Of a stretch of 38,769 bases of DNA, positions 6,285 to 37,761 are shown piece after piece (within the stretch, counting starts at the first letter, position 1; each line of letters opens with the position of its first letter). The notes beneath the pieces are model-generated. The model was not told the DNA's origin. It was given only the letters and a program-made list of their open reading frames with translations, and searched no databases. The DNA is from a virus. Its lineage: Duplodnaviria; Heunggongvirae; Uroviricota; Caudoviricetes. The stretch is from the IMG/VR virus record IMGVR_UViG_2778261204_000005, positions 1 through 38,769 of that record. One strand, given 5' to 3'. The translations under genes and the position numbers were made by a program.

Positions 6285-6417
6285 TTTTGGGGACTCCTGG
6301 CTGATTAAGTATATCGATAAGGCGTTTCCATCCGTCACGTAATTTACGGGTGATTCGTTCAAGTAAAGATTCGGAAGGGCAGCCAGCAACAGGCCACCCT
6401 GCAATGGCATATTGCAT
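6277..6417 (-). CDS. cIII: CIII, FtsH protease inhibitor, lambda-type
   Basis: Hand translation gives MQYAIAGWPVAGCPSESLLERITRKLRDGWKRLIDILNQPGVPKNG (46 aa), matching lambda CIII; AAGGAG RBS; overlaps kil start as in lambda; not in the supplied ORF track because under 60 aa. Confidence 0.75.
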   Translation of the reverse strand: MQYAIAGWPVAGCPSESLLERITRKLRDGWKRLIDILNQPGVPKNG

Positions 6418-6489
6418 GGTGTGCTCCTTATTTATACATAACGAAAAACGCCTCGAGTGAAGCGTTATTGGTATGCGGTAACGCCGCGC

Positions 6490-7053: not shown

Positions 7054-7476
7054 TTACTTAACCAATGATGCCGCATATTCAATTAGGAATAACTTAGGTG
7101 CAAGCAAAATCTTCAACCATTCGAAATTGAAGGCGATAATTAAAACACCCATAATTGAGCCAAATATAGGAACAAATACAGTGCATATATCGTAATAAAC
7201 CGAAGATATAAAATGTCCATCATTTGGACGTCCATCGAAAGACGTCCATCTCTCGCCATTATTTCTTGCCGTTCTTGCAAAACTAGGAAGTTTAATTGCT
7301 GCAATTAAAAGCAACAATCCAGCCACTTGGAAAAGTGCGCTATGGACAAAACTCCATATTAGCAACTGATGAACAACATCAGGAATCTGTGCCTGGCTAA
7401 ATGAAACAGCCGCGTCTATTCCATTGCTGGCTTTTTGCAGTAGTTCTACGAGAATCTTGTTTGCTTGTTCTTCCAT
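7054..7476 (-). CDS. small inner-membrane protein, candidate superinfection-exclusion/abortive-infection factor (SieB-position)
   Basis: 140-aa ORF with 2-3 hydrophobic helices, AT-rich, 9 nt downstream of N. Confidence 0.5.
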   Translation of the reverse strand: MEEQANKILVELLQKASNGIDAAVSFSQAQIPDVVHQLLIWSFVHSALFQVAGLLLLIAAIKLPSFARTARNNGERWTSFDGRPNDGHFISSVYYDICTVFVPIFGSIMGVLIIAFNFEWLKILLAPKLFLIEYAASLVK

Positions 7477-7484
7477 ATATCACC

Positions 7485-7784
7485 TCAAATAAGTGGTTTG
7501 CTGCCTAATTTCATTTTCTGGCGCCCAACACAAGTCACACCCATTTCGCTGCGTGGCTTGCGGTAGTAAATACGGTTCTGTTTACGCTCGACTTCTTCTG
7601 CCTTCTTGCAGCGAAGGCTTCCGAGTGATGCTGCTTTATCTGCTCTGACGCAACCAGAGAGCTTTAGCGCAATTTTTCGCGCCAGTCGCTGTTCTTGCAT
7701 TGCCTGTTCACGTTGAGCCTGTCTGCGTGCTCTGCGGCGATTTCTGGCGTTATCGTCAGCCAGATATGTAATTACTACTGTCAT
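7485..7784 (-). CDS. N: antitermination protein N (arginine-rich motif)
   Basis: Start moved to internal ATG with GGAGG RBS; N-terminal NARNRRRARRQAQRE arginine-rich motif; C-terminal half recognised as similar to N of phage 21/933W-type. Confidence 0.7.
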   Translation of the reverse strand: MTVVITYLADDNARNRRRARRQAQREQAMQEQRLARKIALKLSGCVRADKAASLGSLRCKKAEEVERKQNRIYYRKPRSEMGVTCVGRQKMKLGSKPLI

Positions 7785-7839
7785 GTTGACCTCCGATGAA
7801 ACAACTTTGGAATTGATAGTGATTGCAAAGTGGTTTCTG

Positions 7840-7869
7840 GCCCCTCGAACTGAGGGGCAGAAAGAGCAT
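7840..7869 (-). promoter_or_regulatory. nut-like element: boxA-like ATGCTCTTTCT followed by 7-bp-stem hairpin GCCCCTC-AGTTC-GAGGGGC, about 55 nt upstream of N
   Basis: Read on minus strand; no U-run so not a terminator. Confidence 0.4.
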
Positions 7870-8345
7870 CTCGCCACCTAATAGGTCAATGCTCGGATCG
7901 AGAGATTTAATTAACCTCGGTTTTGAAGTTATGCATTCACATAAATCCTCCTGTTGCATGTGCAGCATTGGCTGTGTTTGGCGGCTGCATTTCGCCTATG
8001 GAATTGACTTTGGCGGTGACGCGCCGGGTGCTTATCTTCCGGTTGCCGTCGTGCAGCTGCACTTCACGTCACCCCAAAGCCAACTACTCTTTGACTCACA
8101 CTCTCGCAGTGAGCGCGCCCATGCCATTGAGTCTCTGCCGCTTCATCGCCGCTGATAACCGGTGCGCGTCTGGCATTCGTGCTGCTTTACCGGAGCTACT
8201 TTTAATATATTGACCTTAACCCGATGCTAAGCAGGCTCGCTCAATGACGACTCAGGGCAGTATCATTACTGCTGCATTGCCTTTCGGCTGCGGTCTAACC
8301 GCGTTAGTGCACCATTACGGCACCTCCTGTTTGGTTAAACTCAGT

Positions 8346-8387
8346 TCCCGCATTTCGGCGGGACAATCCCATCAATGTTAAAGAGCC
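8346..8387 (-). promoter_or_regulatory. nutL: boxA (GGCTCTTTAA) and boxB hairpin (TCCCGC-CGAAAT-GCGGGA)
   Basis: boxB is the same 18 nt as at nutR. Confidence 0.65.
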
Positions 8388-8436
8388 TGCCAATCTGTTC
8401 CGTTTGGCTACCAGCGTCCTGCTGATGGCTTAAAGA

Positions 8437-8519
8437 TAACTTAGGTTATAGGTGCGGTCAATAACCTAATTTATATTTTATGGTAAATAAGTTATAAGTG
8501 ATGGATAACAAAGGTATTT
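8437..8519. promoter_or_regulatory. OL/PL region with three ATAAC-N4-GTTAT-type operator sites
   Basis: One perfect site ATAACTTAGGTTAT and two variants at about 25-bp and 44-bp spacing. Confidence 0.6.
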
Positions 8520-8644
8520 TATTTTTGTAAATGTTGCTGATTGATTGGTGTTTGAGGGCTTACGTGCGGGGTGAAGGTGTTACCTTTGGCTTGATGCTTG
8601 TCTATGATGAGGATGGTTGATTGGGTGGTGAACGGCAGGAAAAG

Positions 8645-8672
8645 AAAACCCGGCGCTGAGGCCGGGTGTTTT
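8645..8672. terminator. bidirectional rho-independent terminator (CCCGGC-GCTGAG-GCCGGG flanked by U/A runs)
   Basis: Ends the cI-orf98 transcript (minus strand) and insulates from plus-strand read-in. Confidence 0.6.
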
Positions 8673-8968
8673 TAGTCTTTTCTTTTGCTTAGCATTTCGT
8701 CGATTTCTAAGTCAATACGATATTGATCTATTGCTTTTCTCTCGTTTGGGGTTGGTATTTTATACTGTTCAATTAGATCTGTTGTGTATTTTATTTCATC
8801 TAATGTGATTTTTATATCAGAGAGAATCTCTTTTATATCAATTAGATGCTCTTCTTCTTTTGCGCGATTAGAGCTATGTTCAATCATTTGAGATAGCTTT
8901 TTGCTAATGCTTAGCAAAACAAAAAGAATGATGACCAAAACAACAACAAAAACTATCAGAAATTCCAT
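8672..8968 (-). CDS. AT-rich single-pass membrane protein co-transcribed with cI (rex-position moron)
   Basis: 98-aa ORF with N-terminal hydrophobic helix and charged coiled-coil-like tail; 40 bp downstream of cI. Confidence 0.55.
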   Translation of the reverse strand: MEFLIVFVVVLVIILFVLLSISKKLSQMIEHSSNRAKEEEHLIDIKEILSDIKITLDEIKYTTDLIEQYKIPTPNERKAIDQYRIDLEIDEMLSKRKD

Positions 8969-9008
8969 TATCCCTCCGCACTTCCGTAAGTCTTCTTCTG
9001 ATTATCGG

Positions 9009-10059: not shown

Positions 10060-10104
10060 CGCTCTTTAACAGTCATGGTCCTCATTCCCGCCGAAATGCG
10101 GGAA
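10060..10104 (+). promoter_or_regulatory. nutR: boxA CGCTCTTTA and boxB hairpin TTCCCGC-CGAAAT-GCGGGAA
   Basis: Canonical boxA followed ~16 nt later by the hairpin, between cro and cII. Confidence 0.7.
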
Positions 10105-36367: not shown

Positions 36368-37525
36368 TCACTCTACCTTCCCATCAAGACAGTCTGCCCA
36401 CCACTGCATCATTTCTCTGCGTTTATCGAGATACTGAGCATGGTTGTAAATCCCGCGCACAGATCCGCCGTTGGCATGTGCCAGTTGCACTTCAATAGCA
36501 TCAGCAGGCCATTCGTGCTCGTTCATAATTGTGCTGAATTCATGCCTGAATCCGTGACCGCTTTCCAGACCCTCATAGCCGATTTGTTTGATCACAAGCA
36601 GCACCGCGTTCTCGCAGATCGGCTTCTTCTTATCGTTGCGCCCGGCAAAAACAAACTCTGATACTGGTTTGGTGATTGAGCTTAGCGTAGTGAGAAGTTC
36701 AACCACCTGGTCTGACATCGGGACCACATGAATTTTGCGTCCCTTCATCACACTGGCGTCAATGGTGATAATCCTGTTTTCAAAATCGACGTTCTTCCAT
36801 AGCATGGAACGAAGCTCTTTTGTTCTGAGGGCTGTGTAGCGTAAAACTTTGGTCGCAATGAGCGATACGATGCTTCCTGAAAATGTTGCCAGTGCTTTGT
36901 TGAATGCCGGGATCTGGTCTGCAGGAAGAAACGGGAAGTTCTTCTTGCGGTATCCCTTCATGGCGTCAGCAAGGTCAGGTGCCGGGTTATATTTAGCCCT
37001 ACCAGTAACAATAGCGTAACGGAAAACCTCGCCGCATCTTCTGCGTGCTTTGTTGGCTCGCTCCATTGCGCCGCGATCTTCAAATCTGCGGATTACTTCC
37101 AGCAGTTGCATCGGCTCAATATCCTGAATTTCAAGACCGCCGATGATGGGTAAAATGTCGTCATCAAACATTTTGGCAAGTTCAGTTGCATAGCCTACTG
37201 ACCAGACTTGCTTCTTGTGCTCGTACCATTCCTTGTAAATCGCACTAAATGAATTGTTGTTAGACGAAGCCTTTTTCGCCTTTACCGGATCGATGCCAAC
37301 CGAGATGTCTTTCCTCGCAGTCCATGCCTTATCCCTTGCTTCCTGCAAAGTCATAAGCGGATATTTTCCGACAGTCAGGATTTTCTCCTTACCGTCAATC
37401 TTGTAGCGAAGCTGCCATACCTTTTTCCCTGACACAGGGACATAAAGGTACAGGCCATTACCATCGAGAAGGCGGTATGGTTTTTCTTTCGGCTTTGCTG
37501 CTTCAATCTGCTTAACGGTGAGCAT
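36368..37525 (-). CDS. intS: tyrosine integrase, IntS (KplE1/CPS-53-type)
   Basis: Catalytic C-terminal region (HGFRHEF, HANGGSVRGIY); start set at ATG (MLTVKQIEAAKPKEKPYRL) to give the 385-aa length recalled for K-12 IntS; track ORF extends to 37561 from a GTG. Confidence 0.9.
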   Translation of the reverse strand: MLTVKQIEAAKPKEKPYRLLDGNGLYLYVPVSGKKVWQLRYKIDGKEKILTVGKYPLMTLQEARDKAWTARKDISVGIDPVKAKKASSNNNSFSAIYKEWYEHKKQVWSVGYATELAKMFDDDILPIIGGLEIQDIEPMQLLEVIRRFEDRGAMERANKARRRCGEVFRYAIVTGRAKYNPAPDLADAMKGYRKKNFPFLPADQIPAFNKALATFSGSIVSLIATKVLRYTALRTKELRSMLWKNVDFENRIITIDASVMKGRKIHVVPMSDQVVELLTTLSSITKPVSEFVFAGRNDKKKPICENAVLLVIKQIGYEGLESGHGFRHEFSTIMNEHEWPADAIEVQLAHANGGSVRGIYNHAQYLDKRREMMQWWADCLDGKVE

Positions 37526-37686
37526 GGGTAAAAATCCGGTGGGTAAAATTATTTTATCCACTTTTTACCCGTCATGGAGTGCGGCTGTCAACGATCTGAC
37601 GCGAACCATGACGAACTGTGAATCTACGGGAGGCTTGATATCCAGGGGATTTTGCGGACTGGTACGGATGGGAGCGAACTGATAAA

Positions 37687-37761
37687 TGGTGTCCCCTGCA
37701 GGAATCGAACCTGCAATTAGCCCTTAGGAGGGGCTCGTTATATCCATTTAACTAAGAGGAC
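37687..37761 (-). tRNA. argW: tRNA-Arg (anticodon CCU), argW-type; its 3' end is attR
   Basis: 75-nt cloverleaf read on minus strand: acceptor stem GTCCTCT/AGGGGAC, anticodon loop CT-CCT-AA, T-arm GGTTCGATTCC, 3' ACCA. Confidence 0.9.

Follow-up and report, generated by a model that had tools for sequence, protein, structure and literature searches.

Between the early promoter pL and the antitermination gene N, this phage carries an untranslated leader that is three times the lambda-type length because of two insertions, and the explanation that on balance we think probable is a mosaic leader that has taken up a mobile RNA cassette: a discrete RNA entity headed by a ribosome and not a regulator of N. 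Our best guess at what the cassette is would be a ribosome-primed, autonomous RNA "moron." Leader mosaicism and nutL sites are textbook material for lambdoid phages; the 250-nt insertion that holds the cassette is something different. It carries a conserved, high-information RNA fold that hundreds of phages and prophages share (among their hosts are E. coli, Klebsiella, Hafnia, Morganella, and Xenorhabdus), and its build is unusual, with a conserved mini-ORF and a structured core held at a fixed spacing in a mobile, protein-free accessory module. To our knowledge, noncoding morons are barely documented. What, then, is such an RNA doing in front of N, and does it have anything to do with N at all?

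Results

A Mosaic Leader

The window (the whole stretch of 38,769 nt that was analyzed) holds the following features from pL to N.

8433..8461, minus strand: pL promoter, TTGACC-17 nt-TATCTT, with a probable transcript start at ~8426
8346..8387, minus strand: nutL, boxA 8387-8376 and boxB 8363-8346, aligned with the annotated nutL of HK620
8094..8343, minus strand: insertion A, 250 nt, absent from HK140, HK620, and CUS-3; carries the conserved RNA cassette
8003..8093, minus strand: module B, the invariant core leader common to all HK620-type N leaders
7800..8002, minus strand: insertion C, 203 nt, common to HK140, CUS-3, and E. coli prophages and absent from HK620
7485..7794, minus strand: N gene with its Shine–Dalgarno (SD) sequence; SD GGAGG 7794-7790, ATG 7784-7782, CDS 7784-7485

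Within 7400-9000, pL is the only sigma-70-like site, and it aligns with the pL/OL annotation of HK620. The leader from pL to N comes to ~640 nt here vs. ~187 nt in HK620; the N leader of lambda has ~220 nt. Compared with HK620 and HK140, the leader has two clean insertions by its BLAST break points, one of 250 nt (8343-8094) and one of 203 nt (8002-7800); for insertion A, the break points fall exactly at 8344/8093. These exact break points against HK140, HK620, and CUS-3 bear out the mosaic recombination that a preliminary description of this DNA had suspected, and the comparison shows a minimal HK620-type leader (nutL, the invariant long hairpin of module B, and the N ribosome-binding site) into which two accessory modules have recombined.

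Module B is 98-100% identical in HK620, HK630, HK140, CUS-3, N7, and others and is predicted to form a long imperfect hairpin with arms at ~8084-8067 and 8021-8003; for the fold of 8100-7770, the MFE and centroid structures agree (z = -4.4). It lies between nutL and the N ribosome-binding site, where lambda has an RNase III-sensitive stem, and by analogy with the lambda N leader, it may be an RNase III-type processing site.

nutL, nutR, and N

What one looks for in the sequence of a lambda-type nut site is found in nutL: a boxA, a boxB in common with nutR, and a position after pL. Its boxA, GGCTCTTTAACA in DNA (8387-8376) and GGCUCUUUAACA in RNA, is close to the consensus CGCUCUUUAACA, which nutR carries at 10060-10071. 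Its boxB, TCCCGCCGAAATGCGGGA (8363-8346), reads UCCCGC-CGAAAU-GCGGGA as RNA. In the window, there are exactly two copies of the 16-nt boxB core, one at 8347-8362 (minus strand) and one just downstream of cro at 10087-10102 (plus strand), with 0.01 expected by chance; the identity of the boxB elements of nutL and nutR, claimed earlier, is thereby confirmed, and the coordinates coincide with HK620 nutL. The spacer between boxA and boxB is ~12-15 nt in both sites. As in lambda, the sites lie downstream of pL and cro and are accompanied by an arginine-rich N, and by its sequence, nutL is a bona fide member of the lambda-type class.

The N gene itself matches PHROG 271 ("anti-termination protein N-like," E 4.8e-37). 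Its product is arginine-rich at the N terminus and phi21/HK620-like at the C terminus, and it is annotated as N in CUS-3, HK140, and HK620. The distance of about 560 nt that had been remarked on between nutL and N comes to 561 nt, counted from the end of nutL to the ATG at 7784.

A Mini-ORF at the Head of the Cassette

The RNA cassette in insertion A is ~235 nt long, and the nhmmer family profile lies on 8332-8089 (E 6.6e-70), the sole copy in the window. It begins with a short translational module.

8304..8328, minus strand: cassette 5' module; SD AGGAGG 8328-8323, 7-nt spacer, mini-ORF AUG GUG CAC UAA 8315-8304

Both the AGGAGG and the ATG GTG CAC TAA reported near 8300 are thus present, with a spacer of 7 nt and not the 6 nt first given. 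Across homologues, the layout is an SD, an AUG, zero to two codons, and a stop. The SD is found in 88/104 distinct homologues; the start codon is ATG in 83 of the 104 and GTG or TTG in 8 more; and 90 of them have an ORF of three codons or fewer, spelling >20 different peptides. Of the 74 homologues that have no earlier stop, 65 keep one at codon 4, vs. 5 of the 17 with an earlier stop; in 74/80, the distance from the A of AUG to the start of P1, the first helix of the core, is 13-14 nt. Stop conservation is therefore aware of the frame, and the spacing from AUG to P1 is fixed. A conserved SD, AUG, and early stop around codons that vary are what a real mini-ORF would leave behind, and we take this one to be real. 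About 10% of the homologues lack the SD/AUG, so the core may work without its head. In the 38.8-kb window, the pattern GGAGG-N4-9-ATG-(<=2 sense codons)-stop occurs only twice on the two strands together (~0.65 expected), both times in the leader.

An RNA Fold Backed by Covariation

Downstream of the mini-ORF, comparison of homologues yields the following fold.

8095..8302, minus strand: structured core of the cassette, 11 helices, comparative
8302-8299/8293-8290, minus strand: helix P1
8288-8286/8281-8279, minus strand: helix P2, with a GAAA loop
8275-8270/8262-8257, minus strand: helix P3
8256-8254/8216-8214, minus strand: helix P4, enclosing P4a and P4b
8250-8247/8240-8237, minus strand: helix P4a, inside P4
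8236-8232/8223-8219, minus strand: helix P4b, inside P4
between P4 and P5, minus strand: A/U-rich linker
8193-8190/8162-8159, minus strand: helix P5, containing P5a
8182-8178/8168-8164, minus strand: helix P5a, with P5
8159-8136, minus strand: conserved single strand GUUAUNAGCGGC...GCGAC of the core
8131-8128/8121-8118, minus strand: helix P6
8113-8109/8099-8095, minus strand: helix P7

The comparative statistics come from a structure-blind MAFFT alignment (A3) of 58 cassette sequences below 92% identity. Paired cells make up 92.4% in the proposed fold vs. 30-36% with slid partners; 26 pairs have changed on both sides (shuffle mean 14.2, 0/500), as have 132 cells (shuffle mean 32, 0/500). RNAalifold independently recovers P3, P5, P5a, P6, and P7, and the 11-helix fold is strongly supported by this covariation. 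As a single sequence, the window copy has an MFE no better than its shuffles (z = -0.07), and the support for the fold is therefore entirely comparative. Homologues from different genera are 50-90% identical, with compensatory changes, and many junction and loop nucleotides of the ~210-nt fold are invariant. The homologues were gathered via one conserved 17-19-mer, so invariance around GUUAUNAGCGGC is partly ascertainment, and the true diversity is under-sampled.

Does the cassette act as RNA, as DNA, or as protein? We argue for RNA because of the covariation, the G-U pairs (~8% of paired cells, which would give A-C on the other strand), the co-orientation of flanking genes, the single-nucleotide indels that the conserved core tolerates, and the lack of an ORF family. 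A protein-coding gene in the leader was rejected on the 1-nt core indels, the compensatory pairs, and the conservation of no frame beyond that of <=3 codons; none of the five leader ORFs matches a Pfam or PHROG family.

Two elaborations of the fold were tried and rejected. An alternative-fold switch, with the conserved J5/6 arms GCGG...GCGAC invading P1 and P4a, is argued against by sequence variants because those of P4a (GUAGC/GCUAC, UCUC/GAGA) go unmatched in J5/6. The variable N in GUUAUNAGC was considered as a specifier or tertiary partner, and its mutual information with all columns proved to be subtype correlation only.

Absence from Described RNA Families

The window copy of the cassette (8094-8343) and two other subtypes have no match in Rfam 15 at E <=10, where only chance-level matches came up elsewhere, and at the gathering threshold, the whole window gives nothing relevant. 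ARAGORN finds no tRNA- or tmRNA-like gene in the leader. Likenesses between core parts and type I-E/I-F CRISPR repeats or SRP RNA were discarded as too weak by eye, that to I-E being on the wrong strand. PGAP either leaves the cassette without annotation or lays a spurious ORF over it, and hypothetical proteins of this kind are the mark that gene callers leave on the element. A literature search found no paper with the conserved strings or with a description of such an element. As far as these searches reach, the cassette matches no described RNA family and is absent from Rfam 15, from genome annotation, and from the searchable literature. The earlier suggestion that the leader might hold an undescribed RNA has held up: a structured RNA family, supported by covariation, has the mini-ORF near 8300 as its conserved 5' end.

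Comparable in kind are the orphan RNAs of phages and prophages in Rfam (int-alpA, Mu-gpT-DE, isrK, C4), which likewise have comparative folds, lie between genes of temperate phages, and have roles that are unknown or cis-regulatory. The cassette, however, finds no match among the 4,227 models of Rfam 15, and we know of no such orphan RNA with a conserved SD-mini-ORF head.

Distribution and Genomic Context

Searched with one 19-mer, the IMG/VR loci place the cassette in >120 viral contigs. Of 5,426 complete E. coli genomes, 117 (2%) have it, as do ~17 Enterobacterales species plus one Shewanella. A scan of genome contigs with a degenerate 17-mer gave 120 rows, most of them chance, and the true matches, separated by nhmmer, lie in Kluyvera, Citrobacter, Enterobacter, Leclercia, Yokenella, Hafnia, Morganella, Xenorhabdus, Ewingella, and Shewanella genomes. 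The carriers include mEp213 and Hafnia yong1, and HK140 and HK620 are without the cassette; natural isogenic comparators in genetically tractable hosts make its function directly testable.

The slots vary from the pL leader to positions downstream of Q and downstream of lysis genes or Rz/Rz1 spanins. For the 123 instances, neighboring genes fall into 51 protein clusters upstream and 63 downstream, among them cI-like repressors, two Q-like antiterminator families, and Rz-like spanins on the upstream side and N, a holin, a TerB-like moron, and (in RothC) tRNA genes on the downstream side. Flanking genes are co-oriented ((+,+) at 47 loci vs. (-,-) at 1), 24/106 copies directly follow an intrinsic terminator, and the gap to the next ORF runs from -8 to 455 nt. 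No terminator was found after P7, and no partner protein within 3 kb is common across loci (an HNH endonuclease lies near 11/119).

These contexts argue that the cassette is not an N-specific regulator. It had been taken for a feature of the N leader, a view that did not survive: copies also lie after Q, after Rz/Rz1, and before >60 unrelated downstream genes. A riboswitch or cis-regulatory leader of some other defined gene was rejected on the 63 downstream clusters and the lack of a terminator after P7.

Might the cassette then work in trans, drawing off a host factor as a decoy or sponge? It would in that case be an RNA anti-defense or host-takeover moron, and its suggested targets are a ribosome-associated protein, an RNase, or an anti-phage defense protein. 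The accessory, patchy spread over 2% of E. coli genomes fits this proposal, as do the classical moron slots beside other morons, the independence from neighboring genes, and a high information content with no partner encoded nearby. We nevertheless consider it unlikely: no target has been identified, the cassette has neither promoter nor terminator of its own, and the timing of its expression would differ by context, early in pL and late after Q.

Insertion C and a Second nut-Like Element

The other insertion holds two elements of its own.

7937..7952, minus strand: second SD and start-stop, AGGAGG-AUUU-AUG-UGA; AGGAGG 7952-7947, ATG TGA 7942-7937
7840..7868, minus strand: boxA-like sequence and hairpin; TGCTCTTTC (DNA) 7868-7860, hairpin GCCCCUC-AGUUC-GAGGGGC 7858-7840

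Wherever insertion C occurs, it lies ahead of N. Of 5,426 E. coli genomes, 159 have it, as two alleles ~70% identical and as recombinants between them; a 19-nt block, TAGGAGGATTTATGTGAAT, is kept in both alleles amid surroundings only ~60-70% identical. The AGGAGG and ATG TGA described near 7950 are there, separated by 4 nt and not 5. A hairpin at +13 after this second mini-ORF, mirroring P1, was considered and dropped; it is present in one allele and not kept in the other.

A boxA-like sequence with a hairpin just upstream of N had also been described and is found at 7868-7840. The boxA-like part, UGCUCUUUC, has a GCUCUUU core without the AACA tail, and GCUCUU is kept in the other allele, where UGCUCUUCC is joined to CCCCGUC-UAAUU-GGCGGGG. 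(In the window, GCTCTTT is not over-represented, with 10 copies vs. 6.8 expected.) The stem is kept by compensatory and wobble changes, seen between two independent alleles only. The loop is not conserved (AGUUC, AAUUC, UAAUU); that of the cognate boxB is CGAAAU. The stem follows the boxA-like core after 1-2 nt, a spacer below the nut-site norm.

Is this a second N-utilization site with a more lambda-like boxB, as had been proposed? The GCCC stem fits the comparison with lambda, but the loop AGUUC is not GNRA-like. A second utilization site finds little encouragement in a loop that differs from the cognate boxB and is unconserved between alleles, although the stem is kept. Unlike a lambda-type nut, the element has no cognate boxB loop and abuts its boxA-like core, features that argue against a second, classical N-binding site in the hairpin. 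Insertion C might still, by placing a second SD-AUG-UGA and a boxA-like stem-loop ~80 nt upstream of N, have some part in modulating N translation or Nus-factor loading.

A much larger claim would make the whole 560 nt a dedicated N-control leader, in which the mini-ORFs adjust how much N is translated and the second hairpin works as a nut or Nus-loading site. The confinement of insertion C to the front of N and the retention of the GCUCUU core, the stem, and the SD-AUG-UGA between alleles ~70% identical would suit this claim. So would a precedent from E. coli, where a study of suhB describes that Nus complexes, once bound to boxA, can repress the translation of a gene that lies downstream (PMC5725501). 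Yet insertion A, with mini-ORF 1, sits in many contexts unrelated to N, and HK620-type phages have the same N without either insertion; the loop of the hairpin and the tail and spacing of the boxA-like core, described above, also tell against it. We regard N control by the whole leader as improbable.

Discussion

If the cassette is not there for N, how might it work? We propose that it is an autonomous, horizontally mobile, noncoding moron of enterobacterial temperate phages, one that sits in several untranslated slots of their antiterminated operons (after pL/nutL, after Q and a terminator, or after the lysis cassette) and would be read only within the phage's own long transcripts, here the N-antiterminated pL transcript. 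Its build, a strong SD, an AUG, a frame of 1-3 codons, and then at +13/+14, a multihelix RNA of ~210 nt, suggests that a ribosome starts on the mini-ORF and stops almost at once. This ribosome could mark and shield the 5' edge of the cassette, insulate its fold from the upstream RNA of whatever landing site it finds itself in, and guard an untranslated segment against RNase E and Rho. P1 sits at the mRNA channel's edge, so the same ribosome may also control when, or whether, the core folds. Once folded, the core would be a discrete RNA entity, either a binding target for a host or phage factor or a place where processing occurs, and not a regulator of N.

We put forward more tentatively, as possible but short of probable, that the cassette represents a new ribosome-engaging class of structured RNA in temperate phages of Enterobacterales that spreads between phage operons as a noncoding moron, and that the RNA, alone or in complex with the ribosome, has an activity of its own. 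The mini-ORF would dock a ribosome one mRNA-channel length ahead of the ~210-nt fold, and the activity could be that of a translation-gated switch, a ribozyme, or an RNA factor for anti-defense or host takeover.

A different role is that of an RNA-processing element, with the cassette as a new self-cleaving ribozyme or a dedicated RNase substrate at which long phage transcripts would be cut; here, the cut would uncouple the nutL/N complex from the N ribosome-binding site. Small ribozymes are also known at positions within polycistronic phage transcripts, where the cassette always lies, and its complex fold, with so many invariant junction and loop nucleotides, also speaks for this role. Lambda offers a precedent of the other kind in that RNase III cleavage in its N leader relieves N autorepression. 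However, the cassette has no similarity to any Rfam ribozyme model, ~210 nt is large for a self-cleaver, module B already supplies an RNase III-like hairpin, and the conserved SD and mini-ORF would be left without explanation, all of which makes processing quite unlikely in our eyes.

Neutral mosaic filler, with hairpins and mini-ORFs present by chance or as remnants of decayed genes, has in its favor the high mosaicism of lambdoid genomes, the unremarkable frequency of GCTCTTT alone, and the single-sequence fold of the window copy, but it was already disfavored and is very improbable given a cassette conserved across genera at 50-90% identity with compensatory changes, frame-aware stop codons, and the fall of both SD/mini-ORF motifs of the window in the leader. 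A leader evolving neutrally without conserved mini-ORFs, which the preliminary description had set against its own reading, is not what the genera display: the SD, AUG, stop, and fold of the cassette are conserved across them.

For the mobile, ribosome-headed cassette that we prefer, three known systems invite comparison. The STAB-SD of Bacillus cryIIIA (a 5' stabilizer, with ribosome-protected 5' ends) and the shunt leaders of CaMV 35S also set a ribosome-binding site or very short ORF just before a stable structure, for an action on the RNA and not for a protein product. Those systems are Gram-positive or eukaryotic, lie at mRNA 5' ends, and have a defined downstream gene, whereas the cassette has a variable downstream gene and is internal to long transcripts; in mechanism, the likeness is speculation only.

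The put RNAs of HK022 are, like the cassette, structured RNAs in a lambdoid early leader that are read within the operon transcript. They are cis-acting antitermination RNAs just downstream of pL and pR, ~70 nt long, with two stem-loops and no SD or mini-ORF, and they replace N. The cassette, in contrast, has ~235 nt, coexists with N or Q, and is also found after lysis genes. An identification of the cassette with put was rejected on size, architecture, and the lack of a sequence match; when 50,697 phage records were searched with the leader by sensitive BLAST, HK022 was not among the hits.

The bar minigenes of lambda resemble the mini-ORFs: in both, a strong SD and a frame of two to four codons lie in untranslated RNA of the pL operon and encode no meaningful peptide. 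The bar-type layout of SD, AUG, one or two sense codons, and stop in the pL-operon transcript is found here at 8328-8304 and at 7952-7937. What defines a bar minigene is its toxicity in pth-defective hosts, and A/U-rich sequence comes after it. The mini-ORF of the cassette, unlike bar, has no conserved rare last codon; it makes up the constant 5' part of a conserved structured RNA that has a helix at +14, and the two move together into other operons.

Architecture of the Leader

The object of interest in this leader is a 250-nt cassette whose combination of a mini-ORF and an RNA fold is unusual. The gene order is lambdoid, running on the minus strand from cI (9746-9009) through a 98-aa ORF and a terminator to pL, nutL, the leader, and N. 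The features of the region are these.

8461-8433 (-), pL, TTGACC-17-TATCTT
8387-8376 (-), nutL boxA, GGCUCUUUAACA
8363-8346 (-), nutL boxB, UCCCGC-CGAAAU-GCGGGA
8328-8304 (-), mini-ORF 1, AGGAGG-N7-AUG GUG CAC UAA
8113-8109/8099-8095 (-), P7, the last helix of the cassette
7952-7937 (-), mini-ORF 2, AGGAGG-N4-AUG UGA
7868-7860 (-), boxA-like element, UGCUCUUUC
7858-7840 (-), hairpin GCCCCUC-AGUUC-GAGGGGC, after the boxA-like element
7794-7790 (-), SD of N, GGAGG
7784 (-), ATG start of N (PHROG 271, "N-like", E 4.8e-37)

The preliminary description was right that the boxB elements of nutL and nutR are identical: the window contains the 16-nt boxB core at just two places, nutL and a site 35 nt 3' of cro that is preceded by boxA CGCUCUUUAACA. 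The position of nutL agrees with the annotation of nutL in phage HK620, and its sequence is that of a typical lambda-type nut site. The long leader was also correctly seen, with N beginning 561 nt past nutL (about 560 had been estimated) and some 640 nt from the transcript start.

BLAST against annotated phages finds the whole leader in no record and its pieces in many. In HK140, HK620, and CUS-3, the end of nutL (window 8344) joins window 8093 directly, with exact pairwise break points, so that the window carries a 250-nt insertion, 8343-8094, which is the cassette (insertion A). A second segment of 203 nt, 8002-7800 (insertion C), is missing from HK620 and present in HK140 and CUS-3, and the lengths add up: the HK620 leader of about 187 nt plus 250 plus 203 gives the roughly 640 nt of the window. 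That is, the mosaic origin suggested earlier resolves into a minimal leader and two insertions with exact break points. Between the insertions lies module B (8093-8003), which is 98-100% identical across all HK620-type leaders and folds as an extended, imperfect hairpin (over 8100-7770, MFE and centroid structures concur, z = -4.4). The lambda N leader contains an RNase III-sensitive stem, of which module B may be the positional counterpart.

Near each end of insertion C is a copy of a 9-nt direct repeat, TCAATTCCA (8007-7999 and 7816-7808, minus strand). The repeat may be a trace of the recombination event that formed the insertion or deleted it; the second copy sits 9 nt inward of the break point with HK620, which makes its relation to the ends inexact.

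A Conserved RNA Fold

Homologues of the cassette, all gathered through one conserved anchor, were aligned with structure-blind MAFFT (the window copy plus 57 representatives below 92% identity, some down to about 40-50%), and the alignment shows invariant nucleotide blocks alternating with variable stems, the central domain occurring in three alternative versions. RNAalifold finds five helices in which 13 of 24 pairs have changed on both sides. In an 11-helix, 44-pair model, 92.4% of cells are paired, against 30-36% after the 3' partners are shifted 1-3 columns. Both sides have changed in 26 pairs (mean over shuffles 14.2, 0/500) and in 132 individual cells (mean over shuffles 32, 0/500), with a covariation score of 0.220 vs. 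0.119. The clearest single pair, 8254-8216, is C-G in 28 sequences and U-A in 25. G-U pairs make up about 8% of paired cells and are compatible with the transcribed strand only. On its 3' side the insertion stops at 8094, one nucleotide past P7, so the inserted segment is, on this predicted fold, exactly the RNA module.

Could the leader instead hold a protein gene? The 1-nt indels inside the conserved core, together with leader ORFs that match nothing in Pfam or PHROG, exclude it. Neither an alternative-pairing switch nor a specifier-like role of the variable N in GUUAUNAGC found support when examined on the alignment.

"Hypothetical protein" ORFs, some antisense, are annotated over the cassette in Klebsiella phage RothC (locus L006, 1416-1752) and in E. 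coli genome matches H47-H49, H94, and H97, and the largest "protein cluster" of our neighbourhood analysis is an antisense ORF across the conserved core; such calls are probably spurious, caused by the conserved RNA.

The Mini-ORF Head

Both SD-preceded mini-ORFs of the preliminary description are present, with spacers of N7 and N4 where N6 and N5 had been given, each one nucleotide off; they are the sole such motifs on both strands of the 38.8-kb window, where about 0.65 would be expected. Conservation of the cassette begins at the SD of mini-ORF 1, an SD-like sequence being found in 88 of 104 distinct homologues. The aligned start is ATG in 83 of the 104 and GTG or TTG in 8 more, and the frame has three codons in 67 and two in 7, while in 16 the stop follows the start codon directly. 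The encoded peptides number more than 20, with MKH, MKQ, MVH, MHQ, MNQ, and MQI among them. A stop stands at codon 4 in 65 of the 74 homologues without an earlier stop vs. 5 of the 17 already stopped, an internal control from which it follows that the constraint is aware of reading frame. P1, the first helix, starts 13-14 nt after the A of the AUG in 74 of 80 homologues. Mini-ORF 1, to judge from these alignments, belongs to the cassette, and the pattern is what selection for initiation and immediate termination, with the first helix at the mRNA-channel entrance, would be expected to produce.

A minority of homologues (L015, L028, and L073) lack the SD/AUG head or P1-P2, and the copy at L029 is internally truncated; either the core can work without the mini-ORF or these copies are decaying.

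Distribution and Genomic Context

The window holds one copy of the cassette (nhmmer 8332-8089, E 6.6e-70). Sensitive BLAST finds it at 78-97% identity in mEp213, Stx2c phages, Hafnia phage yong1, E. coli phage 733R5, Klebsiella phages RothC and RothD, and a Providencia phage, and at least 120 IMG/VR loci match a 19-mer from its most conserved stretch. Our scan of bacterial genomes was over-degenerate and gave chance matches, from which a profile search sorted true copies in Kluyvera, Pseudocitrobacter, Silvania, Citrobacter, Enterobacter, Leclercia, Yokenella, Hafnia, Morganella, Xenorhabdus, Ewingella, and Shewanella. Among complete E. coli genomes, 117 of 5,426 carry it, chromosomally in every case and with an RNA annotation in none.

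Its surroundings vary between loci: 3' of rexB and a presumed pL in yong1, 5' of a second N gene in mEp213, between Q and two tRNA genes upstream of the lysis genes in RothC, and between lysis genes and terminase in 733R5. Over 123 instances, the flanking protein clusters number 51 upstream (including cI-like repressors, two Q-like antiterminator families, and Rz-like spanins) and 63 downstream (including N, a holin, and a TerB-like moron). At 42 of 119 distinct loci the upstream genes include one for a cI-like repressor, and no protein is common to all loci. An intrinsic terminator ends 15-25 nt 5' of the cassette AUG in 24 of 106 distinct flanks, and long flanking ORFs run the same way as the cassette, (+,+) at 47 loci vs. 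(-,-) at 1. Varied neighbours, upstream terminators, and co-oriented flanks together place the cassette in those parts of antiterminated operons that are classical moron slots. The cassette itself was found to contain neither promoter nor terminator; at the level of sequence, its expression is shown to depend on read-through transcription and the cassette to be independent of neighbouring genes.

The terminators just 5' of the cassette (L006, L011, L025, L046, L050, L136, and others) are mutually unrelated in sequence, and in the window the boxB hairpin holds their position; a hairpin directly 5' of the cassette may be part of its use or insertion. In mEp213 (L004, JQ182733), tandem N genes of HK244 and HK620 type lie at 359-691 and 1844-2116, with a degenerate boxB and then the cassette immediately 5' of the second, an arrangement suggestive of duplication or recombination of a pL-leader segment. 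Free-standing HNH/AP2-type homing endonuclease genes occur near the cassette at 11 of 119 loci (for example, L126, about 130 nt 3' of it; L006, 2089-2628; and L007, 2604-2954), too rarely for an obligate partner; they may be relevant to exchange of these intergenic slots.

What the Cassette Might Do

In this phage, N-modified RNA polymerase would read from pL through nutL into the cassette, where a ribosome would dock on the strong SD, make fMet-Val-His, and terminate. That ribosome could shield the module's 5' edge, insulating it from upstream RNA, RNase E, and Rho, and, given P1 at +14, it may gate folding of the core as well; the folded core would be a discrete RNA, either factor-binding or processed. 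It may serve as a decoy in trans, as a processing element, or in some other capacity, and no one of these is favoured over the rest. We are very confident that the cassette is an autonomous structured RNA and not an N-specific regulator, and we propose the shielding or gating role of the mini-ORF only tentatively, as the less probable case.

The lambda bar minigenes resemble both mini-ORFs in form; unlike them, mini-ORF 1 heads a structured RNA and is conserved as part of it. The HK022 put RNAs share the cassette's location and differ in size, architecture, and sequence. Rfam 15 has no model matching any of the three cassette subtypes tested, and neither the conserved strings nor a description of such an element was found in open-access text. 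The undescribed leader RNA that had been suspected is thus this cassette, its fold comparatively supported; as far as the evidence goes, it is a protein-free accessory module, widespread and undescribed, a judgment based on absence from Rfam and open-access text, which is not proof.

The Second boxA-Like Element

Insertion C occurs solely before N (in HK140, CUS-3, and 159 of 5,426 E. coli genomes), as two alleles about 70% identical and recombinants between them. Both alleles keep a 19-nt block with SD-AUG-UGA, a UUAAUUAAAU block, the boxA-like core AUGCUCUU(U/C)C, and the hairpin stem, which is GCCCCUC/GAGGGGC in one and CCCCGUC/GGCGGGG in the other; the stems differ yet pair, so compensatory and wobble changes have preserved them. 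The loop varies (AGUUC, AAUUC, UAAUU) and is unlike the cognate CGAAAU. The second boxA-like and hairpin element announced earlier does exist, then, and its reading as a second N-utilisation site fails at boxB, whose loop is neither kept nor cognate-like. Two independent alleles are thin ground, and on them the stem-loop is probably functional, next to a boxA core of Nus type.

Neighbouring Features

The 98-aa ORF between cI and pL (8672-8968, minus strand) is predicted to have a transmembrane segment at its N terminus, matches PHROG 18389 (unknown function) and no Pfam family, and is followed by a bidirectional terminator-like hairpin (8648-8667). In lambda, rexAB occupies this slot, and by that equivalence the ORF is probably a lysogen-expressed moron. 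Further along the pL operon, the Rfam family Lambda_thermo (the cIII thermoregulator) matches at full length at the start of a cIII-like ORF (6372-6430, minus strand, 88.5 bits, E 1.8e-20). At the window end, a tRNA-Arg(CCU) gene (37687-37761, minus strand) adjoins a 397-aa ORF (36368-37561, minus strand) that looks like an integrase beside its tRNA attachment site, a reading under which the window would be an entire prophage of the P22/HK620-like type.
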